A stretch of DNA of 64,000 bases from Amoebophrya sp. A120 (lineage: Eukaryota > Protista > Dinoflagellata): NCBI GenBank assembly GCA_905178155.1, contig CAJINV010000004.1:4009555-4073554 (forward strand). The letters run 5' to 3'. The position numbers were made by a program, and so were the translations under genes. Below, one piece after another: positions 570 through 64,000 of the stretch (its first letter is position 1; every line of letters begins with the position of its first letter). A model generated the notes under the pieces. The model was not told the DNA's origin. It was given only the letters and a program-made list of their open reading frames with translations, and ran no database searches.

Positions 570-1504
570 ATGTTTATCGCCAAGGAGCGTCGTTTCTGCA
601 AGCCCCTGCTGGAACAGCTTGGGAGGCAAAGATCAGCATGCGGAGCGCCGGCAGTTCCAGGACTGCAGGCAGAGCAAATGTGGATGCGTTTACCAAGCGC
701 GCCGCGACCACGTGGCAGTAGTCTACGAACAGCACGGGGGATGAATCAACATCAAAGCTATGGGACCACGAGAAGTAGTACCTGCAGCAGACGAGTAGTA
801 GATCATGCGTCTTTACTGACGAGCTCCGCAAGAACATACTCCACGTTCCTTGCAGCTACGCGCCGATCTTCCAGTTTTCCCAGTCTTGATGTTTCCTCGA
901 CCACGAGTAATAGATTGGGATTGGCAATTACAGGTATAATTGCAGCAACTCCAACTACCACGCTACCGCTAGTACCAGAAAACGAACCACATCAACAGCC
1001 ACAAAAACGTCGTAGCTTTGCCTCCGCTTCTCGCAAGGACGTGGGGGACGGCGAGGGGGAGAGCAAGCGGATGTCGGAGACGGAATTTCATTCCCTGGCG
1101 GACGACGCGTTGAATGCGTGTTTGGATTTAATCGAGGACCGGAACATCGACGAACAGATCGAGGTATCCTGTGCAAAAGTATCGTACTCGTAGTAATTGC
1201 TTTCATGCATGACAAATATCCCTTTTTGGCTGAATCAGCATGACAAATTCCATTTTCCCTTATGCAAAAACTTGTGATGCGATTTATACTAGTACGATAC
1301 TTTTGCAATGCATACGAGGACTACGACTTGGCGGACGGGGTGCTCAAGATCGTGGTCACCGCGAAGGACCAAATTGTGGTGAACAAGCACAACGCCACGC
1401 AGCAGATCTGGTATTCCAGTCCTTGCGGCGCGCAGTACTTCGACGCGCCGTATGGGGAGCTGGTCGGGGCGCTGGAAAAGGACTTGGGGGAACTGCTGCC
1501 TTGA
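570..1504 (+). CDS. FXN: Frataxin (CyaY family) with N-terminal extension, 2 exons
   Basis: Spliced C-terminus EFHSLADDALN...IE|DYDLADGVLKI...VVNKHNATQQIWYSSPCGAQYFD matches the frataxin signature. Interrupted by an introner at 1165-1314. Start ATG (570) is uncertain. Confidence 0.88.
1165..1314. mobile_element. Introner family A
   Basis: TIR tat-N4-tgcaaaagtatcgtact; direct repeat cgagg/cgagg; readable as GT-AG. Confidence 0.92.
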
Positions 1505-4500
1505 CAAGTAGGGCGAGCGTTTTGAACAAAAAATGACTTCTATATTGTTGACTCAGAAGAAGAAGATTACTCTAAGCGACTGCGTATCTCTTTGCGTTCT
1601 TTCATATTCGTATGAAAAGGCGACGATGTCGCGCAACGCGAAAATTGATGAAGCTGCGACCTACAACGGACGTGCGTAGTAGTCGCGCTTTTGGTGTCAG
1701 TGTCTTCCACTCGACGCTGTTTCCTTCGATGTGGTCTGGGAATTGTTGTTCAGCCACTGTGGTCAATACCGAGCCAAATTTCTCCAGTCAATCGGCAAGC
1801 GAAGGGCCGAGCTATCTCACAAGCGGGACAAAGTGCCGCGCATTCGCGGCGCCATGGCCATTGGTAGCCTCGTGGGCGTTCGCTTGGGCGGTAGTCCCAA
1901 GGGGGAGGGGCGCGAGGCGGGCAACGGGACCCCGAAGCCGCCGCAGTCGCGTGCGAAAGCACAGGCCCGCCTGCTCTGTGTTGCTTGGCGCCCCGGCGCT
2001 CGGGCGACGGGTCTCCTGCGTGAGGGCGGCCTCGAGCTCCGCCGCAAACAATTACACGCAGCCGCCCCCGGACCCCGGGCGGGCCGGCACTCGGTGCCTT
2101 GGGCGCTACCCACCGCCCGCCCCTAGAAAGTAAGGCCGGCATCTCCCTCCCAGGATGGATGGAGCGAGGTCGGTGTCCTCGCCCCTCGGCGAGCGTGCGT
2201 CATGCGTTCGCTCGGCGGCGTCTTTGTCCGCACCTTGTTCGCCACCGGAGCGAGGCGATGCTATCGAACCGGACGCGGTCAGTTCCGACAGATCTGCAGG
2301 ACCGGCACAAAGTCCAAGAGCGAGGAAGCAGCTAGTGGCAGACGCGCTTGCGCCAGGGCGAAAAGGAAACCACAGCGAAAGATGGAGCGCGCAGCAGTAG
2401 CGCGTGTTGCCGTCCTGGAAAGCCAGGAGAAAACGGCGGGCAAAATCCTCCGAAGAGTCTGCACGTTGTGCCGCGTTTGTAGCGCTGCCCGCAGTGCTCT
2501 GCGTGCTGTGTGAGCAACCGAGCGCATAGATATGAATGTCAGGCGCGGGGTGGTCTGCGCGCTCCCCGAAGGACAGTTTGGCGCCGCGTTTGTAGTGTTG
2601 TTAGTGGTGCTCTGCTCTGTGGGCCGTTGTGGCGCATAGAAATAAGCGCCACAACGCGCGAAGGCTCGCGCTGTTGGCCGATGGTGGCGCGCGGCCGGCG
2701 CACTTGCGCGTCTTTGCCTCCCTTGGTGGGCGCATGTCAGTGCGCACGAAGGCGACCCCGCCCCGCGCATTGGGCAGGCCGAAGAGGTTTGGGGCCCGCC
2801 CCGGCCTAATGCGCAGCGCGCCCCTCGGGAACTTGTTCCGCAGTCCCCCTATGGCTTTTGTTCTGCGAACGCCCGCAGACGCTTCGGCGCCTGCCGACGA
2901 AGGGCGGCCCGGCGCGCGGAGTTCGCCTCTTGGCCTTGCCGATCCCTTCCCCTTTCTGTGCCAGCGCTGCCGCAGGTCGTTGCCAGTGTTTGGCACCCTG
3001 CGCCGGCGGCCGAGTGCGCGGGGCCACTCCACTGGGACCAGGCAGCGCGGCACCCAGACGGCGCGGGCAATGATCTGCGCGCCCTACCGCGGAGAGACTG
3101 ACGTCGCCCGCTTGCTTCCATAGGAGGCCAGGCGCCCGCACCCTCCGGCAGCGCGCCCAGAGTGAAGAGGTGGAGGCGCCGCCTCCTTTGCCCCTGCCCC
3201 CACTTTCTGCACGGCGGTGACTGGTGTCGCAGCGCCCAAAAGGGGCGCCCGCGTGGCCCGCCCGTGCCCGCCTGGCCAGGCAGAAGGCTGGCGCGCGCGC
3301 GGCTTGTTTTTGTTTTCCGACCGCGCGCCCGCTGCCCCCGCCTAGCGCACACAGCGCGCGGGCGCGCCCACAGCGGGAATTGGGGTCGACGCATGCGACC
3401 GGGGGCCGGCGGAGGGGGGGCGCAAAGAAAGCCTTCGCGAAAAGGACGGCCGAGCGGGCGATGGGACCGGACGGAGCGAGGGTGGGAGCAAGGGAGGCAG
3501 CGGGCCCGCATTCCTCTTCTATTGGCACCCATGGCGCGGCCGAGGTTCCCGGATATTGGGACGCGACTAGCGCTGCCACCGGGCCGCCCGGCCGTCTGTC
3601 AAAGACCGCGTCGCCCCAACTAAGCCTGCAGGGCGATGCGACTGGGCCGGCCCAGGTGGCTCGTCCACGCACGGTTCTCGCAGTATAGCGTCCGACGTTG
3701 TAGCAGGAACGCCAGCCCACTAGCACTAGTCAGGGTAGTCTGAGATGGAGCTGGGTAGTTTGTGTCGACGCAATGGAGCTAGCGTCCGCCGACGTCTTTT
3801 GTCCATGATCTTCATCTTCTTCTTCTTCTGTGTTTTCGGCCTTTTTCTGGTCTGTTGCCACTGTGTTTGCGCGATGACGCTCGAGCTTGTCCCCGGTTGA
3901 AATAAACCTCGCTTTCGGTGGAACATATCACCTATTTAACCTCTTAGAAGAACATCAAACAAAGTCTCTTATAGTACTGATTTTGGTCTGCGAAACGTAA
4001 ATCCCCTCAGCACTACCGACGTAAAATTCTGTTGTCTGCGAAACGTAAAAACTTCTCGTTTATTTCAAATCATTATTTTCTCATTTCGTGGTCGTGGTCG
4101 CCTATTTTTCTGCATATTCTTATCGACCGTGGTGTTGATTGTTGTTCGTTACCGTCGCGTCCTGCTAAAGTTTTGCCTCTCTTCATTGTTGCCGATTGTT
4201 TCCCACAGCAGAAGCCCAGTGCTCGAACACGATCGGAGTGCACCAGCGAGGCATTGCTGGGTGAAGCCAGAAAAAGAAGCTGCATCATCAACACCTCCAA
4301 ATCCAGTAACACTCACACAACGACCACAAGAACGACGCACAGTTTGAAACTGTACTGAGGCAGCCGACATCGTCGCTCTCTAGGCCTGGCGTGAAAAAGA
4401 GAAAGGCAGAAGTACATCAGGCCCTGGTGGTAGGCTCTGAAGACTGCGAAGCCTTTCAGGAACAACAAGCGCGAAAAAGCTCTTCACCTTGGACACCAGC

Positions 4501-4517
4501 AGCGCAGTTCTGCAATT

Positions 4518-7095
4518 ATGACGACGCTCGGTGGTGGTCCCTCACTCGGCCGGGGGCCGTCGGGCGCGACAAAATTTCTGCTCAAATTTGACTCCTTCCG
4601 GGAAATACCCTCGGACCTGACCGAGCCCACGTTACTCGGCAGCGTGTTCACCCTCTTCGCATACTTTCTTTGCGGTACAAAAATTGAACTTGAACTGAAA
4701 GCTGGATCTTCATCACCATCATTTTCATTTTCGCAGTGCTAGAACGATGAATGTAAACGTACACAAGAACCTGCTGATGTTTTCCAGGACAACACACATA
4801 AAAATCCACCACACAACAGGTACACTTTTCATGTGCGAGCTGTGGGGCTTTTTGATGGCGGAACACTCTACCCGCATTGTCATGGACGGCAACCAGGACA
4901 AGCAGCTCCGCATCAACTTCGACATTTTGATGCACGATCTGGCGTGCAAGCACCTCACCATAGGAATTTGGGATTCCTTCGGCAGCGAGCGCCTGAACAT
5001 CACCAGCAATATTGTGAAGTCCAGGAAAATGCACGACGGTATAGTATTGACATTGACCACCTACATTTGAACATGCGCTACATATTTTTACCCTCTAAGT
5101 CATGTGTTACAGCTACGCGTTCGCTTCATGAAGGGGTAGTACTACGGCCGCACAGAGCTGCAACTGCAAGATCTTTCTCCTATCGCTCTCCACCAAGACT
5201 ACATCTACAGGTACGTTCCATCCCTACACGGATTCGGAGCTCCTAGCGTTGGACAAGCACAATTTCACCGCCGAAGAAATGGAGGAGTACAACAAGGACT
5301 GGGGCAGCAGCGCCGAGAAGCACATATGCACTGCAAAAGTATCGTACTCGTACTAATTGCGTTTATGCATTACAAATTTTTTTGTGAACGCAAATCCGCA
5401 TTACAAAATCAATTTGTAATGCTAAGTCAAGTTGTAATGCAATTTATACTCGTGCGATGCAATGCTTTTGCAGTTCATAGCACACCAGCTTCGATAACGT
5501 GATCGAGAGCCACGACTTCACCTTTATAAATTTTTACGCGGGTTGGTGCCACCACTGCCGCATGTTCGCGCCGGAATGGGACAAGTTCGAGAAGGAGGCC
5601 AACTCCAAGCCCGGCGAGCTGGTGGACAGCAACGGTTCTCCGGTTTCTGTGCGCGTGATCAAGATCAACTGCGTGGACTTCGAGGAGACCTGCAGCCAGG
5701 AGCAGATCATGGGGTTTCCCACCGTGCGGCTCTACCGACGGACGGTCACGAAGCGGCGGTCCTTCTCCGAGTTTCCGCAGGCCCGAAACGCGGCCGCCCT
5801 CTCCGAGTGGATCAAAAAGGAGCTGAAAAAGCAGGAAGTAAGCAACCCCAACCTGCAGTTCCACAACTTTTTTTCCGAGGGCTGCCGCGCGGAGGGCTTC
5901 GTGGAGGTCGCGCGCGTCCCCGGAACGCTGCACCTAGAGGCGTCGCACTCGGACGACACGAGTTTGAATTTCGCCTTCACCAACGTGAGCCACACCGTGA
6001 ACCACCTCAGTTTCACTACCGCGGGCGAGTTGTCCAAGTACCCCACCCGGGTGCCGCGCAGCTTCGAGGAGCACGTGAATGTGTTGGACGGAAGAAATTT
6101 TTTCACCTCCGGCTTCCACCAGGCCCCCCACCACTACATACAAGTGGTCTCCACCTTTTTCGAGACGCAGAAGGCCCGGAGCTACCAACTCACGCACCAG
6201 CAGCGCCTGGCCGCAGTGTCGAAGCACAGCACGCCACAGGCGAAGTTCTCCTACTCCCTCTCCCCAGTCGAGGTGCGGGTCACGCAGAGCGGCTTACGGA
6301 AGTGGGAAAGCATCGTAATTTCGTCATAGATAAAGATCTGATGCACTCTCTCTCGTCTCTCGGTCTCGCAGCATCAGCATTGCATCTTCATATAAGTAAC
6401 TTTGTTGGCATAACGGTGACAATCAAAATAGAAATGCGAGGAGGCTGCTGGAGAAATTTCTATGACCGGACAAAAGTCCTTAATTCCGGATTTTGCTAGC
6501 GGTCTTTATAGAAATCCTAGCGGTCCCAGCTTGCTAGCTGACTAACGACAGCGACGCCGTCCGCCCTGGGAATGCACCCACACGCCAACGATTTCAAAGC
6601 AGTACACTGCAGCGGTGTGGCTCTTTGCATTCAATGCATTGAGCCAACAACCTTGTTGAGAAAATAGCAAAGGCGTCTGTGCGTGATGGCTATAAAAGCT
6701 GCGCAGTCATAAATATCACGCTTTGACACGAGTATGATCGTCATTTTTCTAGCGAACTGGGATCGCTAGAAAATCTATAAAGGCCGGTAGAAAATCCGGA
6801 ATTAAGCAAGTTTTGTCCGTTCATAGAAATTTCTATTGTGGATGGAATGACAATGAGCGGTTGCTGCGGTGCCTGTCGTGAAAAAAAAACCTGTCGTGAA
6901 GATCATGCTTTTCCTTTTTGTAAGTACGTGCATTTTACGATGGACTTTTGCCCGCAATACACCAAAAGATGGTACGAATTCATCACGTCCCTGTTGGCCA
7001 TTGTGGGCGGGGCCTTCACCGTCACCGGCATGCTCCAGGCTTCCACGGCAGCCGCAAAAAGGGCCCTGAAGATAAATCTGAACAAAGTGGTGTAG
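4518..7095 (+). CDS. PDI-C-type protein: ERGIC_N + thioredoxin (WCHHC) + COPIIcoated_ERV domain, 5 exons
   Basis: KFDSFREIPSDLTEPT..G (Erv41/46 N-terminus), FYAGWCHHC, GCRAEGFVEVARVPGTLH, FSYSLSPVEV, KW|YEFITSLLAIVGGAFTV. GT-AG introns 4675-4819, 5039-5210, 6302-6968; introner 5325-5479. Confidence 0.9.
5325..5479. mobile_element. Introner family A
   Basis: tatgcactgcaaaagt...cttttgcagttcata; direct repeat gcaca/gcaca; non-canonical ends. Confidence 0.9.
6452..6834. mobile_element. MITE/foldback element with ~85-bp TIRs inside a GT-AG intron
   Basis: 6452-6537 is an imperfect reverse complement of 6749-6834; both ends carry the palindrome agaaatttct. Confidence 0.8.
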
Positions 7096-7821: not shown

Positions 7822-10800
7822 ATGTTTTCGTCCGCGGCGTCCGCGCCTTTTGTTTCCACCTCCCGCACAGGAGGTGGTGCTTATCCTTATCCACAATACG
7901 ACGGCCCAACAACACCGCCGGTTCCCTACCTCGTGTGCTCCTTCGCGGTGACAGAGTTTGCACAGGCGGACATCACGCGGGAAAGTTTTGTTTCCTTGCT
8001 GCACTCCGAGCTGCGGAAAGTGAACAACTTTGCGTTGATGAAATACGACGGAGTCAACACCGCGTTGCGCCAGGCGTGGAAGGAGCTGGACGAGATGGCA
8101 AAGGAGGAAGCCCGGGCGGGTGACGTGACCACGAAACACACCCGCGTGTCCAAAGAGCGACTCAGGGGCAAGATCCGCGCGCAGGGCGAGGAACTCTGCT
8201 GGCTCGACTGGTTCCTGCGTGAGAACAAGGACACTTTGCAGCAAATTTTGGTGGAAGCGCAGGAGCGGAGGCGGGAGGATGAAGAGGATCGTAGACGTCG
8301 TGCGGCGGACAGGAGCAGGAGCAGCAGAAGACATCATGAAGACGCGACTATGCATTCAAGACGGAGCAGGGAGACGACGGAAAGAAACACGACCCCTTCG
8401 CGCGAAGTAGTGGAAGATGACGAAAATAACGATGATGATCCACTACCCAGAGGAGCAGGAGGTGGTAGTTCAAGTAGCTCTTCTTCGACGAGTAGCTACA
8501 CCTTTGAGCCAGAAACCACGACGACCCGTCGAACTACGACGAATAAGCGCGACAAAGATTTTTCCAATCGGAGAAACAAAAGGTCCTCGTCTTCAGGTAG
8601 AAGTAGTTCTGAGGAAGTAGACCCCGCTGACACGAGAACTGGGGACGGAGCGAGAATAAATGCTACTGGGCATCAAGGAACAAACCGGCAAGATCCTCGT
8701 CCTCGCAAGGATAAGCATAAGGAAACAACACGCAGACGTAACAAGACAACGGCGCAGGTGGATGTGCATGAGCTACTCGAACAGTACCTTGCGGCTGAAG
8801 GGGCGACTTCTACGCCCGACGTGGATGATGTTCCGGAACAGGAAGATGCCGTTGGTCCGGCTGGTGCCGCATCAACAAATGACGTTCATGTTGATGAAAG
8901 ACGACATGATATTGGTCAACAACACCACCTCCACCCGCAAGAACCTCCCGCAGCCGCCAGCAGTTCTACCTCTCGCGTGTACGCGAACCGGGTGTCCTTT
9001 GTGGCTTCGTCTCTCGGCGCGGACTCGACCACCTTCCTTTCGCTGCAGCTCGACGAGCTGCTGATCCTGCTCTCGTTGACCTGGCAGTCACTCCGCGGCG
9101 GCGGCAGCAAGGCCGAGAAGTGGCGGCCCGGGGTGAAATTTGTCCGGAAAACGCAGAAGTACTGGGTCCCCAAATCCGAGGTGGTGCGGCTGAAGACGGG
9201 GATTTTGGAACACTTGCCCTACTTGATCTTCGGCAAAAGCGTCCAGGAACTGGGGAAAATCTTGCTGCAGCCGTTCCGCGGCTACCAACTACAGGTGTTG
9301 AACAAGCGTGCTACGAACAAAGTCGTGGACCGGGAATCTGGTAGAAATGCAAGGTCAAACACAAACTCTTCAGGTGGTCGTGGTCAAGAACATAATCTCT
9401 CAAAAGGCAGCCAGAATGAGAATCAGGACGATGTTGAGGTGGAGGGCGACAGAATGAATGACGATGATACAACGAAGAGCACACCGGCACCGCAATCTGG
9501 TCGTCAGGGCGGGACCACTACCTTTACCGCGGCGCGCAAGAGCAACAGCAATAGCAGAGGAACTACTGCAACTGCAAGTAGTAGACCTTCGAAAACAAGC
9601 AAAAGAACAGACTCAAGCCAAAGCAAGAACAAAAAGTCAGACGAAATTGCTGTCGCTCGGCAGGAAGTAGACGAGGTAAATGACGACCCTCTGGAGGACA
9701 CGGACCAGCAGCCGGACGACGAGGAGCCGCGGGTGTGTGAGACGCAGCAGATTACGTCCGTGTATTTGGACTCGCCGGACGCCACGTGCTACCACCGCCG
9801 TATCTTGCGGGAGGAGGGCGCGCGGCTCGTGAGGTACCGCTGGTACGGCGAGTCGGACGAACAAGACCCAAACGAGGAGATTTTCATGGAGCGCAAAATC
9901 CACCACGAGTGCTGGGTGGGCGATTCCAGCACTAAGGAGCGATTTACGATTCCCAGGCTGCTGTTACCCCAATTTCTGCAGTTGACGAGGCCAAGGAATG
10001 GGTTCTTGCTTGGGCCAGATGAGGATCTAAAAGATGATGAATTGCCGATTTATTCCACCAGTGACGGCGAACGCGAAGGAACTACGACCACCACGAGCAT
10101 AGGGGAAGACGAGGACCAAACCGAGCGGAGGCGCCGCGAGCGAAAGAATGATAGAGGTGTTCAACATCATGATGGAACTGTAGTTCCTGCCGCGTCTACG
10201 AGTAGCACTTCTTCTTCATCCGAGGTGGAGGTCGAGGGTGAACATCAAGGACGTGGTCCTGCTCGTGGGCGACGGGCAGGGCCGGGGGGTGATCGTGAAC
10301 TTCACGGTGCGGATGTTGAGCATCGTAGATTGAAGATCACGGGCCCACCGGTGGAACAAGCTACGGCGCAGAAGTACTTTTATCCAGGAGCAGCTGCTCT
10401 ATTCGCAAAAGGTCTTCTCCAGCCTTTACTTCATCGGGGCAACAAGGAGAACGCAGTGCAAGAACATTATCAACGCCAGGACGAAATGAAAATTGTGCAA
10501 CAGAAGCTGCGTAGCTCGTCGTCGTTACCACCGTGGTATCTCCTGTGGTGGCAGAGATACATCGAGAGTCAGCAGGAGCAGCTTTTACGACGCACGACAG
10601 ATGAAACTACTATCGGGGAGGAAGAGTTGGACCCCACCGTCAGAGATGAGCGGGCTGAAGCGGAACTCCGCAACGCATTGCAGCTCGGACGCGAAATCCT
10701 CACGCTGCTGCACACCGACTATCAAATGTAAAAATGTCTGGGTCTGGAACAATGCAACTTGTCATGCTAAATTTGAAGTATGCAAAAATATGCGTTGCAT

Positions 10801-12394
10801 GATTACCAAAAGCCGTCCAGTTTTGACCAAGTCGGGAGGGAGTTTCTCATGCAGGATAGGCATGAGAGAGATCGCACAGAATCTGTCATGCTAGGTCCTG
10901 CATTGCAGACCTTATGGGTCATGGAAAAGCTCCATGACAAATCGCGCATTCTTCCAGACCCAGACATTTTTGCATTTGATACCGACCAACTCCGCCCGAT
11001 GATCCGCACTGCCTACAAGCGATGCGCCTTCCAGAGCGCCAGCAGCAACGAGCTGCGTATCTCACTGGACGTCGACATGCGCCTTCGCAAAGAGCATGGC
11101 GTAGTGAAAATGCCCGATGCTGATATGGATGCAGCTGTTGTTAGTACTCGAAATCCAACCAGACAGGAGAAAGCGAGGCTAAGCAGAAACCCAGCAACCG
11201 CAAATAAAGACGACGATTACCTCTTCCCCTACGCCATTTTGGAAGTGAAACTCGCTGGTCTGGCGGAGAATCCTCCGTGGGTGCAGGACCTGCTCTACCG
11301 CTGCCGAGCGATATGCATTGCAAAAGCATCGTACTAGTACAAAACGCATGACAAATTTTTCGTAAAGGAAAAATGAAATTTGTCATGTTGCAGAAAGCAG
11401 ATCTGTCATGCAAGACCTGCATTTAGACTTATACGAGTACGATACTTTTCCACAGGATAGGCGACGCAAGTGTACAAATTCTCCAAATTTCAGCACGCCA
11501 TGACGTTGCTGCACTATCAAAAAGTACCCTACAAACCGCACTGGTACGCGGATTTTGAACGGGGCGGTGGGCTGGCAGCTGTGCCTGTGAGTAATAGCCG
11601 CGAAGACATGCTGGGGGATGAACTAGGTGGTGGCTATAGTATCACAGGCGAAAGGAACTACAGGGATGAAAACGCCGGCACGCTCGTTACGGCCGTGGAC
11701 GTGGACGGCGGGGGTCGTCGAGAGTTTGACGAAAACGAGGGAACTACAAACACGATCAGCACCGCACTAATATCGACGTTAGCAAACCAATCGCACAAAA
11801 TCCGGAACATGCGCGTTTTGGAGGCCAAAGCGTTTTTCGCCAACGAGCGGACCTTCGTGCACTACGCGAAGCACGTATGAGAGTGCACAACTCCCCCTCC
11901 CCCTCATTTGTAATGCAAAGTACCAAGTTTGCACCTTGCTCGCAAGCACTGTTAGCATGACAAATTTTGGAACCTAAGATAGTATTACAATCCGCATCCA
12001 GATTTGTCATGCGAAAGCCCCTTTTCTGTATCTGTTGTTACTTGTGTTCGTTGCTGTTCATGCCATACAAAAGAGGGGGAGGGGGAGTTGTGCACTCTCA
12101 TAGCGCGGGCTGGTCTTTCTCCTGTTTCTCCGCTACATTGCGCACAGCCAGAACGAGACGTGGCGGGGCTTGAGCTTCGTCCTCGCCCCCTTTCTGGGGA
12201 CTTACTTTGTCTGGTGCCTCCTGATGTACCAGGATCGCACGCAAATCTTGGTGAAGCAGGAAGCGGTCTGCCGCAGCAAAAACTACCGCATGGACAGCGC
12301 CGAGGGACCGCTGCTGAGCTTCTTCCTCGCGGTTACGCTGTTGTTTGCGGTGCTGGTGTTGTTTTTCTTCGTGGATGAGGACGAGGGGGTGTGA
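7822..12394 (+). CDS. VTC4: VTC4-like vacuolar polyphosphate polymerase (partial SPX + VTC + DUF202 TM region) with long low-complexity inserts
   Basis: ELRKVNNF (SPX-like), FVRKTQKYWV, ITSVYLDS, RYRWYG, ERKIH, RTAYKRCAFQ, FPYAILEVKL, KFSKFQH, FFANERTF. Frames join after removal of three introners. The true start may lie upstream. Confidence 0.87.
10720..10981. mobile_element. Introner family B
   Basis: TIR tatcaaatg(t/c)aaaaatgtctgggtctggaa; direct repeat ccgac/ccgac. Confidence 0.93.
11312..11459. mobile_element. Introner family A
   Basis: Direct repeat agcga/ggcga; readable as GC-AG. Confidence 0.9.
11876..12102. mobile_element. Introner family C
   Basis: Perfect ~30-bp TIR tatgagagtgcacaactccccctccccctc; direct repeat gcacg/gcgcg. 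Confidence 0.92.
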
Positions 12395-15618: not shown

Positions 15619-16865
15619 TTGCCGGCTTTCTTACTGCTGGTGGCGGACAAGAATGTTGCGGACCAAGTCGGTGTCGCCAGCAACGGGCGAACATCTCACC
15701 TGACGGCGACGGGCGGGGTCGACAGCAGGCAACAAGACGAACAGTCCGCATCCCCCCCGTCGGTCTCGGAAATCGAAGACGAAGGCCGCGGAGAAGAGGA
15801 AAATCATGCCCCGAACCCCCGAGAAGCTTCCTCCACTTCTTTTTCCCAAACGGACAGCGTTCCGAACTCGACGCCAGCGGATTCTTCCCACACGAGTTCG
15901 ATTTGGAATGACGAGGTGCAATCTGCGCGGTTCGAGGGGCAGTTCATGATGTATTTGCACACCACAACTTCGATGGAGCAACAGCTATTGCACACTGTTA
16001 CTCCTGATGAGATGCGGAAACTGCAGGTATTCGTATTGATGGCCATCGCCATCATCATGCTTTAAGTAAAAAAAGAAGAACTTTGCAACAAAAATAATCA
16101 TCAACATCAGAAGACAATAGAATAGTTTATTGCACATAAGATGAGTTTTGACTTTGATGACGAAAGGGAAACCAAAGCAATAGTTGTCCTTGTTGTCGTC
16201 TACTGTGACATCCTGCTTCATGTTGACCGATCAAGCGAAAAAGAAAAATAATATATCACGCTAAGGTACTGAAACAAGGGTTCCAGCTATACTCTCCCTG
16301 CTTGCTGCTGAGGTTCCCGGCGTACCGATATGGTTTGAAAGTTTTGAACTTATGCAATGCACAACAAGAAGTATCTGTAATATCGTACTAGCAATGTATT
16401 AAAAAATTGCTTGACAAATAAATCTGCGTCTGGCAGCATGCTGAAGATCATCAAAAATCGAATTTGTAATGCTTATAATTCGGCATCGGCTCCTTGATCA
16501 TGATCTCGAGAACCAGACCATCTATCATGCACGATGGGAATGAATTAGTACGAAAACGATACTTGTTCTTTTGCACAGCATAGAGCTTCGACGCCGACAA
16601 CAATTACATGCTGAACCAAACCGAGTTCACGATATGCAACCAAAAAGTGATGTTACGGCTTTGCTTTCTACACGTTGTATTGCGGGACAAGCACGACGGA
16701 CAATCGATCCCTGTCATGCCGTACATTCCTGCGAGCGTCTTTTCATGCGTGTTGTTCCTCTTCCTTACGATGACGAACAATCGCAGCAGTAGTAGCGGTA
16801 CCTTTTGCTTTTTCATAATGCCTGGAACAACGCTAAAAAATTTAGAGAATTTTATGTGTCGCTGA
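15619..16865 (+). CDS. Probable multi-exon hypothetical membrane protein; exon structure unresolved
   Basis: ORF 15619-16065 ends in a hydrophobic stretch. Removing element 16351-16582 gives an open frame FPAYRYGLKVLN|FDADNNYMLNQTEF. Confidence 0.35.
16351..16582. mobile_element. Degenerate family A-like introner
   Basis: tatgcaatgcac...gatacttgttcttttgcacagcata; direct repeat gaact/gagct. Confidence 0.7.
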
Positions 16866-35582: not shown

Positions 35583-37075
35583 ATGGTGTTCTTCCTGGAG
35601 AAGTGTTTCAACGACACGCAGGATGACAGCAAATTGGGGCAGGTTGGTTGCTGCAACTGTGACCGGTCGCAGCCGCCGGGCGGGTGTCTGCGGTTCTGGT
35701 CCTGTTGCTGCAACGGTTGTTGCGGAACGGGTGCCTGTCTCACCGGGAACTACGATGGTGCCGGATCGCGGGCCTTCAAACTGCAACTGTCCCTGTTCCT
35801 CTCGGTTTTCCTTCTGAAAATGCTCTTTTTACCCACGCTGGACGTCATCGTCCTCGCGAAAACGAGCCGCGGAAACGGACCTCCACCTACGTCCACCGCC
35901 ACCGCCGCGCCAACGGAAGGAGCAACTAGTGGTACAGCCGCGTCAGGTACAGCAACCCAGTCGGCCTCGGCGTCCTCTAGCTCTACTAGTATGGCGGAGC
36001 TCCGGCACGGGAAGAGGATTGCGGGGGAACAAGTAGATCTTCTTCACGATTTTCAGACCGCGCAAGAAGATCCTCGCCAGGTCATCGAAATCTCCGCCGT
36101 GGGCGACAAAGGCGAAGCGGGACAAGGCTCATCTACCGCCGCTGGTACTAGAAGTAGAACTACTACTAGTACCTCCTCCGCAGCAATGGTGCAGCTCAAC
36201 CAGCAGGAGAAGTCCTCGGCAAACGTAAACATGAAGATGAAGCAGGGCGTTGAACAAATGGCGGATACACCAACAAAGGCGGCGGGAATGAAAACTGCGA
36301 AGAAAGTCGTGCAGGAGGTGGACACGACGGGCCAGGGCCAGGGGAAAATCAAGGACGCCGCGGCCGCCCAGGAGGACGGAGAGAAAGGAGCCGCGCTGCA
36401 GGGAGACGAACTAAAAGCCGAGCTGCAGGAAGTCGAAGCGGATGCAGCGGAAGCGTTCGACGAGACGAACTTCACGGGCTTGACCATTCTTGTGGTCGCG
36501 CGCACGGTCGTGTATCAAATGCAAATATGTCTGGGTCTGGAAGAAGGTAAATTTGTGACGCGAATAAATGTGATTGTAAATCTGAGTTGCATGACTGCCA
36601 CGAGTTCTTACCAGTTTTGGGTGCAAGGTGAGCGGGAGTTCTTTCTCGTGCAGAGGAGGCATGATGAAGACGTCATAGAACAATCTGTCATGCTAGGCCC
36701 TGCATTCCAGACCTCGTGGGGCTTTGAAAGCCTGCATGACGATCCTTGCACTCATCTCCCACAGGAGGACCCAGACATATTTGCAGTTGATACCGTGGAT
36801 GGGATCGCGATTCTCGTCGAGATCATGTCGCTGATCCACCTGTTCTATGAACTGCAAAAGTATCGTACTTGTATAAAAAATGCAAGTCTTGCATTACAAA
36901 GCTTGTTCCCAAGGCAAATCTGCATATACAAATTTTAATTCTCATGCTGAGGAAATAATTTGTAATGCAGTTATACGAATACGCTTGCTCTTTTGCAGTT
37001 CATATGTTCACGTGGGACGCGAAGACCTACCAGAGCAAAAACTCCGCCGTCGTGGGGCCGCCCACTACCGTGTAA
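35583..37075 (+). CDS. Cys-rich membrane protein, paralog 2, 3 exons
   Basis: MVFFLEKCFNDTQDDSKLGQVGCC...RTVV|DGIAILVEIMSLIHLF|TWDAKTYQSKNSAVVGPPTTV* after removing two introners. Confidence 0.75.
36513..36792. mobile_element. Introner family B
   Basis: Family B TIRs; direct repeat tcgtg/ccgtg. Confidence 0.88.
36846..37004. mobile_element. Introner family A
   Basis: tatgaactgcaaaag...cttttgcagttcata; direct repeat tgttc/tgttc. Confidence 0.9.
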
Positions 37076-52084: not shown

Positions 52085-55000
52085 ATGGCTTCCACGACGA
52101 AGAAGTTCAGCAATGTCAACCTGAACGCGCCCAAAACTGCGAAGAAGACAACTATCTTCGAAACCGTCGTCACCTCCGCTAAGCCCGCTCTCACTTCGGC
52201 CGCGGCGCCCGCCCGTATTGCTTGTTTATTTTACGGCACGCTTTCTGATTTGCTGGTTTTTTTTTTTCATCTGCAACTGCATGCACATAGTATGATCTTC
52301 AAACTGAAAGTCCAAGAGCCGCCGAAACGACCTGTGCGCTGAACAGTGCTGGTAATGTCACACTGGCTGGAGAGATATACACATCACGAGCTCTTTTGTC
52401 ACAAATTTTCCACGAGATGTTCTTGCATCTTCTAGCGGGGCCGGGGTCAACTGGTGTGCATAAACAAGATGAGCAGTAGTTATCAAAATCAAAATGAACG
52501 ACTGCATTGTATAATATCCAGGTTCAATCGGGCGTGCCGGACTTGCAGGACTATGTTCTCTCCCCACGGTAAACAAGAAGCCGGCGAAGAAGGCGAATTT
52601 GCTGGATGCGCTTGCAGACGAGGCCAAAGGAACCAAGGTCATTGAAGAAGACCTTCCGGTGCCAAAGGTACGATGAAACTTCGTGTACTCTATTTCTGCA
52701 TGAAGTTGTACAGCCTTCTTTGGCCGCAGGGTTTATCGTAGGTGCATGCGCATAATAGTAATGGAACTGCAAAGGTAATTGAAATAGAAATTTCCAAAAT
52801 TAAATCAAAAAATGAAAACAGGAATCAGATGAGAATACGTACGAAGAGGAGGCTCTGGGAAAGCCAGTTTCTTGGGCCGACCAGAGCGAAACTGTTGAGG
52901 AGGACTCGGTAGGCGCTGCGGGTGCGCAATCTGCGAAAAAGCCACAAGATGGCGGCCCGAAGGTACTTACATACTTACTTCTTCTAAGCTTCTACTTCGC
53001 TTGGCTGTTTTATTCAGCATGATTTTTCTACACGTGAAGCTCGGCGGGAAGACTGATTTTTTACAGCCGGATTTTGATGTTTCGCGACGACGCAGGCACC
53101 ACCTTCGCAAAATGATGTTCTTGAGTCCCATGCTTCAGTAAAAAAAAAAAAAACAGAGCAAGTGGGGCGCGGCTGTGCAAGCCAAGTCGATGCAGGAGAT
53201 TATGGAAGAGGAAAAACAGAAGGAGGCGGAGAAGAAGGCCTGGCAACTGAAGAAGCAGCAGGAGCAGGCGCACCTGGGAAACACCGCGTGGAATGGGCGC
53301 GAGCACTACGGTGCGGGGTTCAACGCAAACACGTACGGGCAGTACGCCGGTTCCCCGGGCAGCTACGATCCCTACGGGAGTCAGCCCAACAGCGGCACCA
53401 ACTTCAACACCGTCGCCGACCGCGACCTGGACTGGCGGCGGGGCGGGTCGAACAGCGGGCTCGAAGCTGACCCAGCTGTCGCCACCAAGACAGCGTATTT
53501 TTTTACAAGGGTGGACTTCTTGTTGTGCTTGTTCTGCTAGTACTACTGGTTGAACAAAAATCAAAATGCCGATTTAATGCATTTTTGCAGTTATAATGTT
53601 GTCGTTGATATGTTTGGTAGTTCTACTTCTATCTTGTTGAAGGACAAGAGGAGCTTGTTTTGTAATGCGTTACTCCTTTATTTCTATTTTCACAAAACTA
53701 CAGCGAGCGGTACTCCAGCAAGCAGTATGAGGAAGAGTTTTCCAAGACGTACTCGCGCGAGCCGAAATTTACCTCCGACCCGGTGGACCGAGCGTCTCTG
53801 TTTGGCACCGCGAAGCAGACCGACGGGCCGGCGGATAATTCAGAGGAGCTCCCAAAGTCTTCGAAAGAAAAGAAAAAGGATAAGGAACAACACCAAAACA
53901 AGCAGGACAGTACAACGACTGGAGGTAGAGACAACACCCGAGGCGGAGAACGCGAACGGGAACAGCCAGCTTCAGGTACTACTTCTGCTGGTGGTAAGGC
54001 GCGAGGAGGAAGGGGCGAATACGCAGCAGGTGATGGCGGAAGAGCTGATACTACTTCTTCTTACTCAGCAGAAAAGCCACTGATTCACCAACACCACCGA
54101 GGGGATAGAGCGGGTGGTCCAAGAAGTAGACAAATTGACTTGCAAAACGACAGCTACAGCCATTCCTATGGCGAAGATTTGCAACATTCAAGTGAACAGC
54201 ACCATCCTGCTGCGGAGAACTGGCGCGGCGGGGGAAGTAGTGCTGGCAACGGTAGAGTCGACCGGGAGCGTGGCGGCGAGGACCGCAGTAGCACAACAAT
54301 GACCCGCGGCGGGACAGGCGGAAGAGAAAACAACCTGCTAAACCGCAACTTGAGCAGCGGTGGCCAGCAGCACTTGAAGAGCCAGTACAGACGCGACGAC
54401 GACCACGCGGACAGCTATTACGACAGAGACGAAGACTATTACTTGCGCGACGAAGTTGGAGTTGCACTGTCTCTATGAAATGCAAAAATGTCTGGGTCTG
54501 GAAGAGTGTGAACTTGTCATGCAGGTTTTCCATGACCCTTGGTTGAGGCCTGGAATGCGGGACCTAGCATGACAGAGTCTGTGGGGTCTCTTTCATGCCT
54601 ATCCTGCATGAGAAACTCCCTCCCAACTTGGTCGAAAGTGGACAGCTTTTGGCACTCATGCAACACAGGTTTTTGCATGATTCGGATTTAGCATGACAAC
54701 TTGCAATCTTCCAGACCCAGACATTTTTCCTTTTGATATTCTCGAGGAGAACGAGAAGTAGAGCCGTCGACCAGCCGAAATAATGCTGCGCAGTACGACA
54801 GCTTTAACCCGCGAAGTAGAACTGCGGCCGGGTCAACGAAGGGAGGAGGACAACATCAAGATGTTGGATCATACTCGGGTACTGCTACGACCAGCCGAGG
54901 CGAAAGTCATCAAAATCACCCTGGCGGCAGAACCGCCCGGGGTGAACATCAGGCTGCTCAGCAACATCTTGAGCACAATACCAGAACTCCAAAGCAAAGT

Positions 55001-58000
55001 ATTCGTGGGAGTAGAGATGTAGACCAGAGATGGCAACAGCAGCAGCAGCACACTGGGGACGTCGAGCGGTGGAACAAGAGAGACGGTGCTCAAGAGAAGT
55101 GGGATCAACATGGGGAGGAACAGTGGAACGAGTATGAGCACGAGGAATGGGGCGAAGAGGAGCAAAAACGGTGGGAACAAAGATGGCGCAAGCCGCACTC
55201 ACCCGCCGCTATGAGCCAGGGAAACACGACCTACGAAACCACAGGAGAAAGTATTCATTTTGAATAAAGAGGCTATTAAATAAGTCGGGAATTGTTCATT
55301 TTACAGATGCATCTGCATGTTGAGCGTAACAACTTGCACAAATTATCGAAAAAATTGTCATGCAATCGTCGTCCATCCCAGACCCAGAGAGATGCTTTTG
55401 CAGTGCGTAATATACCACCCAAAAACTACAGGCCACCCGTACACTGCGAATTCCACTGAACAGCATTCACCTGTCGACCTAGGCCGCGAGCGCGACCCCA
55501 TCACCCTTAACAGCACCGGGTATTTTTTACAGCATCACGTCGAGAGTTTTTTTCTACTGCGCTGCTATAGAAGCAGAGCACCATGTGCCAACGTGCTGAA
55601 GATTTGATCAACTTTTATTTGCGTCATTGAAAAATGCAATGCAATGTAGTCCTTTGTGATTGTGTCGCAAGTGAACTGAGTGAAACTATCAAACAAATTC
55701 AAATCCAACTTCAAATACAGACCACGCACCCGCGCAGATCCCCCCTTTGGCGCACCCCCGCCACCCCCGTCGGGGCCCCCACCCCGCGCTGCGGAAGCTC
55801 TGGTAATGAAGGTGCCCACTGCCGCTTTGGTTACCAACGTGCGCGAAACGCTTCGCTCGATGCAAGGTACACATAGGTTGTTTCTTCTACCTTGTGTCTC
55901 GTACATAATTATGAGAAAATTTGACGATCATTTCTTATGAAGACGTTTTTCTTTTTGCATGTTCGATGAAGTGCCTCTCCACAGCAGTTCCCCAGGAGCA
56001 TGGCTATGGTACTGGTAGTGAAAAGATCTGTAATCGAAAACGAAATCGACAAAGAATCGTCGATGCATCAAACAAATGAAAAATCAGGCAAATGCACCCT
56101 GAAGCACTTGGCGACCAAGCAAAAGGATTTTTCCGCGAAATCTGGGAAAAATCTGGATGACTTCCTGATGGAGCATCCGGACGTTTTCAAGATCGACGGC
56201 AGCACGGTGACACTCCTGGAAGACACGCGATATTTGACAAAGGACACCTCCAACACTGAAGAGGTAGCTTATGCTTCGTAAATCCATTATTTCATTGACG
56301 AACACGGAAGTTTTTTCACGTGCTTTGCTTGTTACACATAGCCAGCATATGGATAATTATGCTCCGCTTGAACCTGATCGATCTCGATGGAGGAAGCAAA
56401 GGATAAAAGCAAAAGAAACCGAAAAGCAAAAGATTCCCGTAAAAATAATATCCACCCACTACTACAACCACAGATCTACGGTGCTTTCAGCGCCCCTAAA
56501 GAGTCCCCGTCGCACAGCAAGGATTCCTACAGCAAATTCAACGCTTCGCAAACGGCTGCGCGGGAAAATATTAACCTGAACACGACGGAACAAGCGGGTT
56601 CTCTTGAGAAGGACCGGTCAGAGAAGAAGAAAAAGAAGAAGGACAAGTACTGGGAGGAGTGGGACGGCGGGCAAGAGCAGGAGTGGACGAAGGAAGAGTG
56701 GGAGGCGTGGGAGAACTGGGGCGACGACTATGCGGAGAAGAAAAAGAAAAAGGAGAACAAGCACAGTCGCAAGGACCCGCACGTGGCGAGTCAGCGCCAC
56801 CCCCTCGGGAAAGAGGAGGATTTAGAGACCTTGCTGCAAAATGAGGTCGACAACGCGTACGGAGACAACCACTTTGATGGGCGCTATAAGGACGATGAAG
56901 TAGTAGACTACGATGGTGGGGATAATTACGACGCAGCAGAAGGAACTTCTAAGTCGGCGAACAAGGGTTACAACACTGGTTCCTACAGTAATAGAACAGG
57001 AGTAAAGGAACAACACCAGGGTAGTAGTTCTTACGATCACCACAAAGGCAGTTCGTCAGCACAGTACAACAACAAGTCGTCCAACAAGGCCGAGAAACAT
57101 CAAGACGGCACTTATGCCTCCTCTTCCCGCGACGACAATACTAGCGCTTCTACTTCTAAGCCGGGGTCTTCTTGGTACCATGATAACAGCGCGAAGGAGT
57201 CCCGCGAGTCCCGGCGGGGTCGCGGCGGCCGGGATAAAAAGAAGGAGAAGGATAACCAGCACTACGATAGCTATGACAAAGACAACTGGTATCAGGAGGA
57301 CAAGGAGACGAGCAAAACAAAGAGCAACATGGTCTCTTTGACAGGAACGGCTGCAAAGAGTTCTTCTACCTCTGCGAACGGCACAGGGGACACGACTCTC
57401 GTCGGTGGTTTGAAGAAAAAGAAAAAGGCGGGTTTGTCCATGAATCTGAACCAGACGGATGACAAGCCGGTTGCGAAGAAGGAAGAGGAAAAGCCGGAGG
57501 CGAAAAAGTGGACCGGGTGGGGCAAGCCGGATCCGGACACACCGGTGAAGCACGACCATGAGTTTAACAGTACCAGTGCGACGTCGCAACAGCCCCCCAA
57601 AAGATCCGTCCCGCTCGCCAACGGAGGTGCGGCTGCAGGAACTGCGAATGGGTCAGCTTCTAGCGGCGCTAACGGAATAAATGCGAAGGGGAACGGCAGT
57701 GCTGCGCCGGTTTCTGCAACTGCGAATGGCAACGGAACCACTTCTAAATCTTCGTCGAAGAAGGGCAGCGGACGCAAGGGTGGCAAGGACAAGGACGGCA
57801 AGGATGGTGGTGGAAAGAAAGGAGCGTCGAACAGTAGTTCTTACGCAGCGGAGCCAAAGTCCAGCAAGGATGACGACGGTGGCTCCAACGACGCCGAATC
57901 TGCGAACAGCGGTAAAGGAGCGGGCAAGAAAGGTAGTTCCTCTTCGAAAAATAAGGGCAGCGGCAAGCGACGCGGTGGAAAGAAGGGCGACAAAAGTGCC

Positions 58001-60432: not shown

Positions 60433-63400
60433 ATGTCTGCGGCGGGGCAATCTGCGGCCATGGCGTCCGCGGACGCGGCGGCTGTGATGCCCACCGGGCT
60501 TTCCCGCGACATCGACGGGAACATTCGGACTCTCTCGTGGGAGAAGCGTCTGGTGCGGGGGTTCGAATCCATGTTCTTGTCCAGCAACAAGGAGGTCGCG
60601 CCGGCGTACTTGGCAAAGACGCTGACCCGGCAAGAAGTCATCAAGGGCGGCGGGGAGACGAAACCCATGCCATTGGGACCGGATGGCAAGCCCATTGTCG
60701 ATCCGGTTTATGAGGAAAAGCTGAAGCGGAAAAAGCGGCGAGTGAGGTATTTGCACCAGGCCTGGTCTTTTGCGTACTTATTTTTCTTCACAACCTTCCA
60801 TGCAGCACGTCTTGTCGCTGTATAGGACGAGGTGCAAGATCAAAAACAAGTACGCCAAAAGATAGATCATAAAAATGAAAATCTCATGCATGCAAGACCG
60901 GTTCGTGGTCAAGTGCTACAATCAAAATCAATATCAAAACAGAAACCTCTATTACGTGGCGATGTTTTGGTTCCTCCTCCTGAACGCCACACTGATCTAC
61001 ACGGGCTGGCAGTACTTTTCCGCGGTTCTCCCCTACACCCGCGATGTGTACATAAAGTCTACCGCCGGGCCGCGGTACGCATTGCAAAAGTACCGTACTT
61101 CCAGTACAAATCGAATGACAAATAATCTTGTCAGAGGCAAAACTGAAACTTGTCATGCAGATTGAGGTAGGAAACCCAAACCAGATTTGTGTTTGTTATG
61201 CACGGTTTGTTGTAAGTACTTGTACTTCGAGTGCGACTACACTTTTGCAATCCATACACGGGTTGCGCAGAGATTCCGGGACTTTATCGAAACCACAACG
61301 TTGGAGCCGATCAAGCGGATCAATAACGTCATGCAGAGGGGGTTTTTCCGGTTTTACCCGTCCATTTACAACCATGTGAGCCCGATTAATTTCCACTATG
61401 CATTGCAAAACAAAGTATCGTCGTCGTATGAATGCATTACAAATTTCCTCAGCATGAGAAATAAAATCTGTAATGCGGATTTACCTTTAGAACAAAATTT
61501 GTAATGCATGACTGCAATTACTACGAGTACGATACTTCTGCACAGGATATCCACCTCGTGGAGGCCATGTTCGGATCGACCTTGCTCGCCCGGCGGGCCA
61601 TCCTAAAGCTGGAGATGGGGTTCGAGGGCACGCGGCAGGACAGCGCGTTCGGCGCCATGCGGTTCTTCCGCGTCGGGCCGAAGGAGCAATTGGTGCTGCA
61701 GACCGACATCCAGAAATTTTGCACGGAGGGGGTGGGCATCTTTGGCTGCACGCGCAACATGACGCTGACCAACGACAAGTGGTTTCGCGATTTGAAAAAC
61801 GTCGGTCTCGGGACCATTCTGACGCAAACGCGTTTGCAACCGACGCATTTGGATCCCTTCGTTCCGAGCCCGCTGCTGATTCCCATGCCGAGTTTGTGTT
61901 CCTACCCGCACTCCGCCACCGCGCAGAGTATGATGGTCAACGCGATGGCGAATATGGCTTCAACATCAAGTAGTAGTGCTGGCTCTGGCTCAAGCAGTCT
62001 CGCGATCATCACCTACGAACAGCTCTTCCAGCAATATTCCAACTTCCCGTACGCCTACCGCGGCCCCGAGTTCCAGCTCGAGCCCGGAGTCTACCACAAC
62101 CTCGGTGTCGGCTGCTGCCAGCCGGATGCGAACGAAGTGTTGGCCCTGCAGGGACCGGCCGTGAGCAACGCAAACTGCCGGCACCAGTGCGATTTGCGCG
62201 GGGTGGATTGTGTGGGATACGACTACGACCTGAGTAAGCAGAGGTGCTGGCTGCAGACGGGAAGTACGGAAGTGCAGTCGGTTATGGGAGTGTCAGGACT
62301 GATGAAATCGTCAAAGTTGAAATAGTTTGTCATGCATAAAATGCAACGCAGAAAGTGCCTCTATTGCAGAGAACGCAAGGGAGGCAGATAGTAGTGCTGG
62401 TAAGGGTCGAGCATTGGGCTGCTGATTAGCATGACAAAGGGGAGCCCCTTTGCCCTAAACAGCATGACAAACTGGCTTCCGGTACGGACGAAATTTGTCA
62501 TGCACCGACTAGAAACTTTGAGGCAAATTGGTATCGATTTTATGCATTACAACTTATTTCAACTTTGTCGATTTCATGATTCCTGACACTTCCATATCGG
62601 TGTCGCTGAACCCACCGACGGACACCTGTAATGCGTGCTACGCGAAGAACCTGACCCTGACGAACCACTTTGACGCGAATGCCACGGCGGTGAACAGCAC
62701 GCTGCTAGACCAGGAGCGGCAACTGGTGATCGAACAGAAACTGCTCGAAATGGCGCGACAGGAACCGAAACTGCACGAGCACCTCGGGCCGATCGAGGCG
62801 GGGGACCCGCGGAGTTATGCGGATTTGCAGCACGAACTGCAGTACCTACAGCTGTACGGAAATTGCAGTCAACGGACCTCGAGCCCCTTTCTCCAATGGG
62901 AACAGGCCCAGAAGACCGCGAGCGCCATTCTGGAGGCGCATAGAACCTTGTTTCAGAAGTACAGCAAGGAAAACTGGTATATTAGCACTGGAACAACATC
63001 TTCAGGCAGTAGTGGTAGCGGTGGTACAACAGGAGCATCTACTTCATCTTCTAATAGACGGGTATTGCAGACAGATATAGATGAGCCTCCTCGTCCCCTG
63101 GAGGACCAGCAGCTGCCCCATCATCAACCGCGGTGGTCGCAGATAGAAGCAGAAACAGGAACAAGTAGAAATTATCGAGGTGGAATAAAGAAAGCCGATG
63201 TGATGTCGTCCGCAAAAAGACGAGTAGCAACTACTTCCAGTAGCAGAAGATCAGGTGGCGCTGGTCGTACAACAACTAAAGTAGAGCAGCTCTTGCAAGA
63301 GGGCATCAGAACAAATTCAAATGTAGAGACCACGAACACGAAGCACACGATGCGAGAAAAAAGAAAAATGCAGATGAGACAACACCGAGATACTAGCCAC

Positions 63401-64000
63401 TACCACATTGAGAACAAGTGCGGCGGGCGGCAGAAGACAGTGGAGGAGGAAAAGCGGTGCGAGGTGAGGAAAAAGAGAAGAGCATCTTCTGCTGGGACAC
63501 GAGATGCAGTTGCAGATAGAATTTTTTGGGAGAATGAAAGGAACGGTATTAACGGAATACAGGCGGAGAAGCACCACACGCTCCATCTTCGAGAGCAGCC
63601 TGGCGCTCTTGAGACCGCACGACACCAGCGAGACCGCAAAGGACTCGATCGTGCGGGCGAGGGCGCAGAAGTAGCATCTTCAAGGTTGCACCAGAAGTCC
63701 TTCTCAGGACAGACAGCAAAATCGAGGGTAACGGCTGCACGGGACGACGAGCATACGAGTAGAGCTTTAGCCGCGCACGCAGCGACGAACAGTTCAACGA
63801 ACGGAACTGCAACTTCGAGCTCCGCCGTATGGCCTTCTCAAATGTTACACTCTCAAGCTCAACTGTAACATGATTTGTTTTTGTCATGCGAAATTACAAG
63901 TAGAATCTGAATCGACACGATCAAGCTGCTTCGCATGACAAATTCTCGAAACGTCAAACAGGCTGAGAATCTAGTCCAAATTTGTCATGCAAGACGCGCA
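60433..64000 (+). CDS. Membrane protein with a PAN/Apple-like Cys module; 3' truncated by the window
   Basis: TM segment LYYVAMFWFLLLNATLIYTGW; GCC...CRHQCDLRGVDCVGYDY...RCWL. Frame restored by removing three introners; a fourth starts at 63828. Confidence 0.7.
61076..61256. mobile_element. Introner family A
   Basis: tacgcattgcaaaagtac...acttttgcaatccata; direct repeat cgcgg/cacgg. Confidence 0.87.
61397..61549. mobile_element. Introner family A (reverse of 1165-1314)
   Basis: Ends gcaattactacgagtacgatacttctgcacaggata; direct repeat tccac/tccac. Confidence 0.9.
62283..62596. mobile_element. Introner family G
   Basis: Similar along its length to 47500-47807; direct repeat tcggt/tcggt. Confidence 0.9.
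63828..64000. mobile_element. Introner family F, truncated by the window end
   Basis: tatggccttctcaaatgttaca resembles the 30039 terminus; three internal ttgtcatgc/gcatgacaa motifs. Confidence 0.75.

Follow-up and report, generated by a model that had tools for sequence, protein, structure and literature searches.

A stretch of 64,000 nucleotides from contig CAJINV010000004.1 of the dinoflagellate Amoebophrya sp. A120, hereafter the window, contains genes interrupted by short elements that begin with TAT and end with ATA. These elements are the published TAT...ATA introners of Amoebophrya A120; a protein encoded in the window is 100% identical to a protein named as from Amoebophrya sp. A120 and 41% identical to its A25 counterpart. 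About 30,000 introners have been reported in A120, with no known mobiliser or splicing route (PMC7789003, in the parts covered), and the covered parts of this and a later study report that no A120 transposase and no family-specific inverted-repeat motifs were found (PMC7789003; PMC12130899). The interiors of the elements carry repeated copies of a short motif, GCATKACAA, which is shared by families with different ends, occurs on both strands, is under purifying selection and is likely needed for transposition of the elements.

Elements were catalogued in the window without reference to the motif, from TAT...ATA ends, a 5-bp flanking duplication and terminal complementarity. This gave 23 elements covering 4,991 bp (7.8%), against 0-1 in each of five shuffles. 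The sample was enlarged by scanning metagenome contigs for the terminal pattern of family 0, yielding 169 loci (547 kb merged) that are biased to that family, are related to the window though perhaps from another strain, and share no long match with it other than elements. Window and loci together make 611 kb, about 0.5% of a genome, and hold 416 elements, of which 340 have an exact 5-bp duplication, 5 bp being the length searched and TAT ends a catalogue criterion; shuffled sequence gave one element. Removal of seven elements longer than 450 bp and four duplicates left 405, and the element at 61397-61549 lies below the stricter threshold of the 611-kb catalogue.

The elements measure 110-320 bp, and their insertion duplicates 5 bp. 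Each end consists of an invariant TAT, a free stretch at positions 4-10, an A-tract at 11-14 (A at positions 11-13 in 85-92% of ends) and a family-specific core at 15-28, past which the interior carries about 2-6 motif copies. An earlier note on this DNA had described families with distinct terminal-repeat cores, and grouping bears this out, with 18 families and 23 singletons whose cores differ at positions 15-28. In family consensus ends the cores, read over positions 15-30, often resemble a doubled unit of 5-6 bp (GTCTG-GGTCTG, CCCCCT-CCCCCT, CCCAT-CCCCAT, GTTACA-GTTACA). Two terminal patterns had no matches in virus collections.

The strict motif GCATKACAA, which the same note had reported as repeated across the window elements, matches the window 55 times (26 on the + and 29 on the - strand), compared with 1.35 +/- 1.13 matches and a maximum of 5 in 100 dinucleotide shuffles of the window; its over-representation is genuine. 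Of 16 coordinates cited for it, 13 are exact and three are off by one (11956, 22470 and 63934, for 11955, 22471 and 63933). GCATGA/TCATGC is the top k-mer of element interiors, present in 22 of the 23 window elements. The fuller consensus is the 11-letter GCATNACARAT, iteration gave the matrix (T)GCAT[G>T>C]ACA[A>G]AT(T), and the strict 9-mer underestimates the true motif: 19 of the 23 elements contain a strict copy and all 23 a matrix match. Forty-three strict matches fall inside the catalogued elements, and none of the 55 is exonic. The other 12 comprise eight in elements with damaged ends or cut by the window edge (33777-34228, 45798-46051, 61076-61256 and 63828-end) and four in GT-AG introns (47304, 53660 and 55355 by the gene model, 45271 judged by eye). 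The claim that the motif spans all families extends to the larger sample, where the window-trained matrix detects it in 403 of 405 elements, in 18 of 18 multi-member families and in 21 of 23 singletons, at 1.8-8 sites per element by family versus ~0.1 in shuffles. Strict motif density in the metagenome loci is 6.2/kb inside elements and 0.51/kb outside, and 193 of the 245 hits outside elements (window and loci) are homologous relics or partial copies.

Conservation was measured in 21 subfamilies of at least four members, and trees were built for 18 subfamilies of at least five. Motif bases depart from the subfamily consensus in 6.3% of cases and spacers in 16.2%, a 2.6-fold slower change; the motif value is the lower one in 20 of 21 subfamilies, and the most fixed positions are G, C and A at 1, 2 and 8. 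The motif, both enriched and better conserved than its neighbouring interior bases, is under purifying selection. Its rate relative to spacers is 0.16 on internal branches and 0.45 on tips; the corresponding values for the terminal core are 0.22 and 0.54, positions 4-10 being free, and cores at 15-28 show 5% change within families versus 16%. The contrast between internal branches and tips, parallel to that of the terminal core, points to selection for mobility, in which lineages still jumping kept the motif. The earlier proposal of a common cis signal thus gains support from the prevalence of the motif, its slow change and the branch ratios. Four elements shared by duplicated loci differ at 1 of 1,109 bases, too few changes for a post-insertion test. 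A neutral heirloom, in which the single ancestor of all families happened to contain the repeat, would agree with the spacer homology (motifs masked) seen in 8 of 55 family pairs, but is very improbable, as neutral change in simulations yields motif/spacer ratios close to 1 and the observed ratio is 0.27-0.44 in intact copies and 0.16 on internal branches.

Transcription direction was assigned with a codon model, in which the local call and that of the neighbourhood coincided in 256 of 270 cases, and strand tests were limited to elements with a strand call. Motif sites are divided between sense (774) and antisense (822), the profile of sense sites from the 3' end mirrors that of antisense sites from the 5' end, and no sense-specific distance to the 3' end was detected. 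Subfamilies are found inserted in both directions; sense-only and antisense-only copies number 6 and 7 in family 3 and 2 and 8 in family 9. Strand symmetry combined with both insertion directions excludes a branch point and weakens models of motif-to-motif pairing. The suggestion of a splicing or branch signal accordingly fell: although the motif is confined to introns, a spliceosomal branch point or other single-stranded RNA signal is almost certainly the wrong explanation, given the equal strands, the merely mirrored profiles, the antisense-only elements in coding exons (that at 47974-48253 interrupts contiguous eIF3c exons) and the presence of the motif in only 25 of 75 predicted canonical introns. 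An RBFOX-like reading of GCAUG was rejected, since GCATTACAA lacks GCAUG and both strands are used. The likeness of the motif to the Sox2-Oct4 composite site we take to be coincidence.

Pairing within RNA would be a different use of the two orientations, in which opposite-strand copies pair and extend the terminal stem and a protein reads the duplex for splicing or RNA-level mobility. The predicted pairing probability in 104 elements is 0.72-0.79 at the motif, 0.43 of it motif-to-motif, versus 0.60 in spacers, and both orientations are present in most families. Same-strand copies cannot pair mutually in RNA, so that families whose copies carry a single motif orientation (all 10 copies of family 9 and 15 of the 18 in family 3), inserted both ways in genes, weigh against this model. 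Pairing by itself would leave the primary sequence free to differ among families. In family 1 the duplex, like the first site, is directed inward, and in families 0 and 5 it is mostly directed outward. Such a hairpin is a doubtful account of the motif.

The placement of the motif is regular in several respects. The distance to the termini, which the earlier note had proposed to measure, is 34-52 bp for the first site in 673 of 806 ends (61% with equal family weights). The dominant spacing is that of same-strand pairs 31-33 bp apart, and same-strand pairs at 30-34 nt account for 20.2 of 41 family units versus 5.9 +/- 2.1 under random placement (largest value 14 in 1000); they include families 1, 3 and 9, whose spacers show no homology to other families. 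Outward-pointing sites show phasing relative to the end (R 0.41 for a period of 10.0 and 0.38 for 10.5, versus a null of 0.10). The possibility that the motif is a copy of the terminal repeat was rejected, as the terminal register resembles it only in families 0, 1, 11, 15 and 16.

Removal of the elements from RNA was followed in assembled contigs of run X1, taken as RNA by guess and also containing GT-AG joints. Seven of the 15 joints listed (of 32) skip an element, and all seven leave out exactly 5 nt more than the element itself, so that the empty site is restored. The protein record is continuous across the elements at 47500, 47974 and 48507; a 76%-identical relative aligns gap-free across 47974-48253, and the exons flanking that element match eIF-3c_N positions 502-551 and 556-590. 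Splicing-out of antisense-only elements (region 45400-55600) was judged from protein contiguity rather than reads. Raw RNA runs X9-X11 contributed 1-2 reads each, too few to be informative. GT/GC-AG borders are usable in any register in just 17 of 293 elements. Splicing would be directed by the terminal hairpin rather than by the motif, and copies later turned into GT-AG introns would retain decaying motifs.

Canonical introns were taken from a small gene model that recovered three of six RNA-supported GT-AG joints exactly, with errors elsewhere; the set comprises 75 predicted GTA...CAG introns without BLAST homology to elements. They contain 36 sites (16 sense, 20 antisense) versus 4.4 in shuffles (largest 10), located in 25 of the 75. 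Eleven have weak profile matches to element families, and without these the count is 20 versus 3.4. Intergenic DNA is not enriched (21 sites versus 15.8) and coding sequence is slightly so (48 versus 33.8), in part through gene-model error. To the earlier note, which rarely noticed the motif in exons or intergenic DNA and proposed a comparison among introners, canonical introns and intergenic DNA, these counts bring one correction, in that predicted canonical introns too are enriched. Forty-four of the 75 begin with GTAT, an echo of G + TAT, and many canonical introns here are likely old introners. The 50 introns without a site indicate that the motif is not needed for general splicing. Elements converted to GT-AG introns (47276-47427; L037:1731; L023:6523) lose their terminal repeats faster than their interior (48% versus 16% at 47276), which suggests selection against the hairpin once canonical splice sites are in use. 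All four damaged window elements (33178, 33777, 45798 and 61076) have TAC rather than TAT at the RNA 5' end and an intact 3' ATA; three of the four TAC starts give G-TAC, a GT donor.

These introns also bear on the possibility that a host DNA-binding protein uses the motif to mark the enclosed stretch as an intron during transcription, through polymerase pausing or recruitment of U2/U5/U6, the mark making the elements harmless so that they spread. Points in its favour are the rarity of possible GT/GC-AG borders, the failure to find U1 (PMC7789003, section 16 of the text), the enrichment of predicted GT-AG introns lacking BLAST homology or a terminal repeat while intergenic DNA is not enriched, the persistence of motif pairs at 30-34 nt outside homologous sequence (12 versus 0 shuffled), and a strict share of sites of 0.47 in predicted canonical introns, where neutral decay would leave about 0.2. 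Against it, the motif is missing from two thirds of these introns, and constraint on internal branches is three times stronger. Older copies with mismatched duplications gain motif and spacer changes alike (+1.6 and +1.4 points, not matched by family), damaged relics exceed intact copies of equal spacer divergence in motif change (0.106 versus 0.072; 0.192 versus 0.114), and an element with a single site is spliced. On balance we consider a host mark rather unlikely.

Our preference, held with slightly more than even confidence, is for the motif as a double-stranded DNA binding site of one factor that serves every family and may be a domain of the transposase or a cofactor from the host. The TA ends, the 5-bp duplication and the filing of A120 introner family 38 as Ginger ('5-bp TSD, TA/TA termini', TSD being target-site duplication; PMC12130899 dataset, in the part covered) suggest an integrase-type mover. 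A transposase of this type (Ginger2 or IS3EU/GingerRoot-like) would read the family core and cut at TAT. The common factor, in the form of either an additional DNA-binding domain of the transposase or an architectural cofactor of the host, would sit on the motif, often on a pair 31-33 bp apart (about three turns of B-DNA). Its binding would bend the 110-320 bp element, and the ends would then pair. With cores at 15-28 specific to each family, a host or accessory cofactor is as likely a binder as the transposase. The earlier idea of a binding site for a shared transposase appears from the sequences to fit best in the form of a site for a shared transposition factor, and neither a binding protein nor a transposase emerged in the sample. 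In a simpler scheme the motif would be the inner site of one promiscuous transposase that ignores the cores, these being kept only for the splicing hairpin. TAT ends, A-tract and 5-bp duplication are indeed common to all families, and where both arms depart from consensus the change is often identical; conservation of the cores in primary sequence, with the same internal-branch signature as the motif, and a terminal register that is motif-like in only the five families named above make this scheme improbable.

Several results weigh against a site for a shared transposition factor. The tip ratio is 0.45 rather than 1; that unsampled transposition accounts for this is an assumption, and because tips mix post-insertion change with unsampled jumps the value is not attributable to either. 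No autonomous element with these ends, up to 5 kb, occurs in the 611 kb, the long candidates being nested insertions or a false pair, and a Pfam search of 83 of the 224 long reading frames detected no transposase domain. Inward sites are unphased to the end (p 0.38), periods of 9 and 12.5 fit the first sites alone as well as 10.5, and site-to-site distances show no 10.5-bp rhythm outside the 31-33 peak. The 31-33 spacers are barely better protected from indels (0.39 versus 0.46 changes per 100 nt), and the common spacer ancestry of 8 of 55 family pairs implies that spacing is partly inherited. Strict sites reach 1.23/kb in predicted canonical introns versus 0.45 in simulated neutral relics escaping BLAST (2.7-fold), and in four relics whose terminal repeats are lost or eroded, only 8 of 142 motif bases are changed versus 83 of 295 spacer bases. 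The above-neutral strict sites in canonical introns keep a host role alive. A single host protein on double-stranded motif pairs might both license jumping and tell the U1-less spliceosome, during transcription, that the stretch is an intron in either orientation, at least a third of ordinary GT-AG introns then being domesticated introners with the mark; we regard this combination as a speculative option with rather low probability.

Table 1. Introners, related elements and motif-bearing predicted introns of the window, with motif copies given by position and strand.
Feature	Position	Strand	Motif copies and remarks
Family 1 introner, core GTATCGTAC, duplication CGAGG	1165..1314		strict 1207+, 1238+; variant 1272-
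Family 1 introner	5325..5479		5367+, 5398+, 5414-, 5432-
Family 0 introner, core TGTCTGGGTCTGG	10720..10981		strict 10759-; 4 variants
Family 1 introner, orientation opposite to 1165 element	11312..11459		11346+; variants
Family 4 introner, core CTCCCCCTCCCCC	11876..12102		11908-, 11955+, 12004-
Singleton introner	16351..16582		16464-; variants
Family 3 introner, core CGTCCCCACCCC	18382..18667		copies mostly +; strict 18466+
Family 0 introner	20622..20874		only variant copies
Family 9 introner, 109 bp, core CCCATCCCCATCC	22439..22547		two - copies, 22471 and 22503, 32 bp apart
Singleton introner	29034..29172		single sense variant copy; removed as element + 5 nt (RNA-like contigs)
Family 1 introner	29314..29453		29385-; variants; removed as element + 5 nt
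Family 7 introner, core TGTTACATTCTC	30039..30287		30186-, 30235+; removed as element + 5 nt
Family 0 introner	30419..30681		30503+, 30634+; removed as element + 5 nt
Family 0 introner	31161..31422		31200-; variants; removed as element + 5 nt
Degenerate family 4-like element, TAC start	33178..33424		one variant site
Degenerate family 0-like element, TAC start	33777..34228		34006-, 34083+
Family 9 introner	34294..34402		only - strand variant copies
Family 0 introner	36513..36792		variant copies; removed as element + 5 nt
Family 1 introner	36846..37004		36891+, 36960-; removed as element + 5 nt
Family 0-like element in eIF3c, TAC start, exact GTGCT duplication	45798..46051		45878+, 45920+; variants
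Predicted GT-AG intron, family 1 relic	47276..47427	+	47304+; 2/32 motif bases and 20/42 terminal-repeat bases differ
Family 5 introner, core ATTGAAATCGTC	47500..47807		47541-, 47644+, 47676+, 47709-
Family 3 introner in eIF3c	47974..48253		five copies, all antisense: 48005, 48036, 48084, 48117 and a variant
Family 0 introner	48507..48754		48548-, 48622+, 48707+
Predicted GT-AG intron	53495..53703	+	one antisense copy, 53660
Family 0 introner	54474..54738		54514-, 54691+; variants
Predicted GT-AG intron with remnant family 0-type terminal repeat	55251..55431	+	antisense copy 55355
Degenerate family 1-like element, TAC start	61076..61256		61150-
Family 1-like introner	61397..61549		61434+, 61499-
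Family 5 introner	62283..62596		62327-, 62429+, 62462+, 62495-, 62544+
Family 7-like element cut by window edge	63828..64000		63881-, 63933+, 63982-

All recognised genes of the window, among them threonine aldolase and eIF3c, lie on the + strand, an orientation that fits the co-oriented blocks reported for Amoebophrya. Two tandem paralogous genes (32976-34460 and 35572-37070, 76% over 200 bp) contain different introner insertions, which are therefore younger than the duplication. At 44222-45430 two copies of one exon-intron piece of eIF3c flank inserted GC-rich, tandem-like repeats. The stretch 1850-3700 (65% GC, non-coding-looking) is unlike the remaining window and is possibly a repeat or element, and an intronic 97-bp inverted repeat (74%) at 6452-6834, which has neither a motif copy nor TAT...ATA ends, is a different element. 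In the related loci, nested insertions with simple-repeat tails (GAT/ATC/TGA/TGAA units) have their junction at a motif copy in 4 of 11 long stretches listed, as judged by eye (L009:13466-14720; L033:632-1465; L035:10307-10763; L067:571-1051); in two of these the target duplication begins within the motif. They are possibly retroelements without long terminal repeats that prime on the ATG of the motif. A C-5 cytosine DNA methylase domain is encoded in a related contig (L020:4584-6083).

A conserved motif common to families with different ends makes the questions of the mobiliser and the splicing route testable, as it can serve as a defined bait in pull-downs and be mutated in a defined way for assays of splicing and excision. 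It also separates the parts of an element into end, family core and common site, and can serve as a tracer of old insertions, its presence in a third of the predicted canonical introns (25 of 75) suggesting that many began as introners.

The published A120 introners are the same elements in the same organism (Farhat et al., 2021, PMC7789003; Gozashti et al., 2025, PMC12130899). The accounts, in the parts covered, share with ours the TAT, seven variable bases and A-tract, a short direct repeat (3-5 nt), the hairpin and non-canonical splicing, and describe terminal repeats alone. No description of the internal motif was found in the introner and Amoebophrya literature searched, PMC9860276 included, within the text portions covered, figures, theses and sequence repositories lying beyond that scope; GCATGACAA and TTGTCATGC had no match in 12 of the 14 supplementary files of PMC12130899. 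Among integrase-type elements, IS3EU/GingerRoot has TA...TA ends as in the A120 elements but usually a 6-bp duplication, which differs from the 5 bp here, whereas the 4-5 bp range of Ginger2/TDD includes it; a shared internal motif is not mentioned for either group in the covered part of the source (PMC10045372). Euglenid nonconventional introns and the Fritillaria introns derived from miniature inverted-repeat transposable elements (MITEs) are likewise transposon-like in their terminal inverted repeats, in flanks that resemble duplications and in their non-canonical junctions; their conserved letters are at the ends, and the sections covered mention no repeated strand-symmetric interior motif (PMC11282704). 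While the elements themselves were already published, the internal motif, its spacing, the family core at 15-28 and the uniform 5-bp duplication appear new. Subterminal repeats proposed or shown to bind mobilising proteins are also carried by Ac/Ds and En/Spm. In the Emigrant/Lemi1 system a non-autonomous element likewise has short motifs in several copies internal to its terminal repeats, and the pogo-like Lemi1 proteins bind these subterminal repeats of the Emigrant MITE cooperatively (PMC1636448, as far as covered). The Emigrant repeats belong to one family with its own transposase (PMC1636448), whereas the A120 motif, with putative binding, is common to at least 18 families with different cores and extends through the whole interior of elements that must be spliced.

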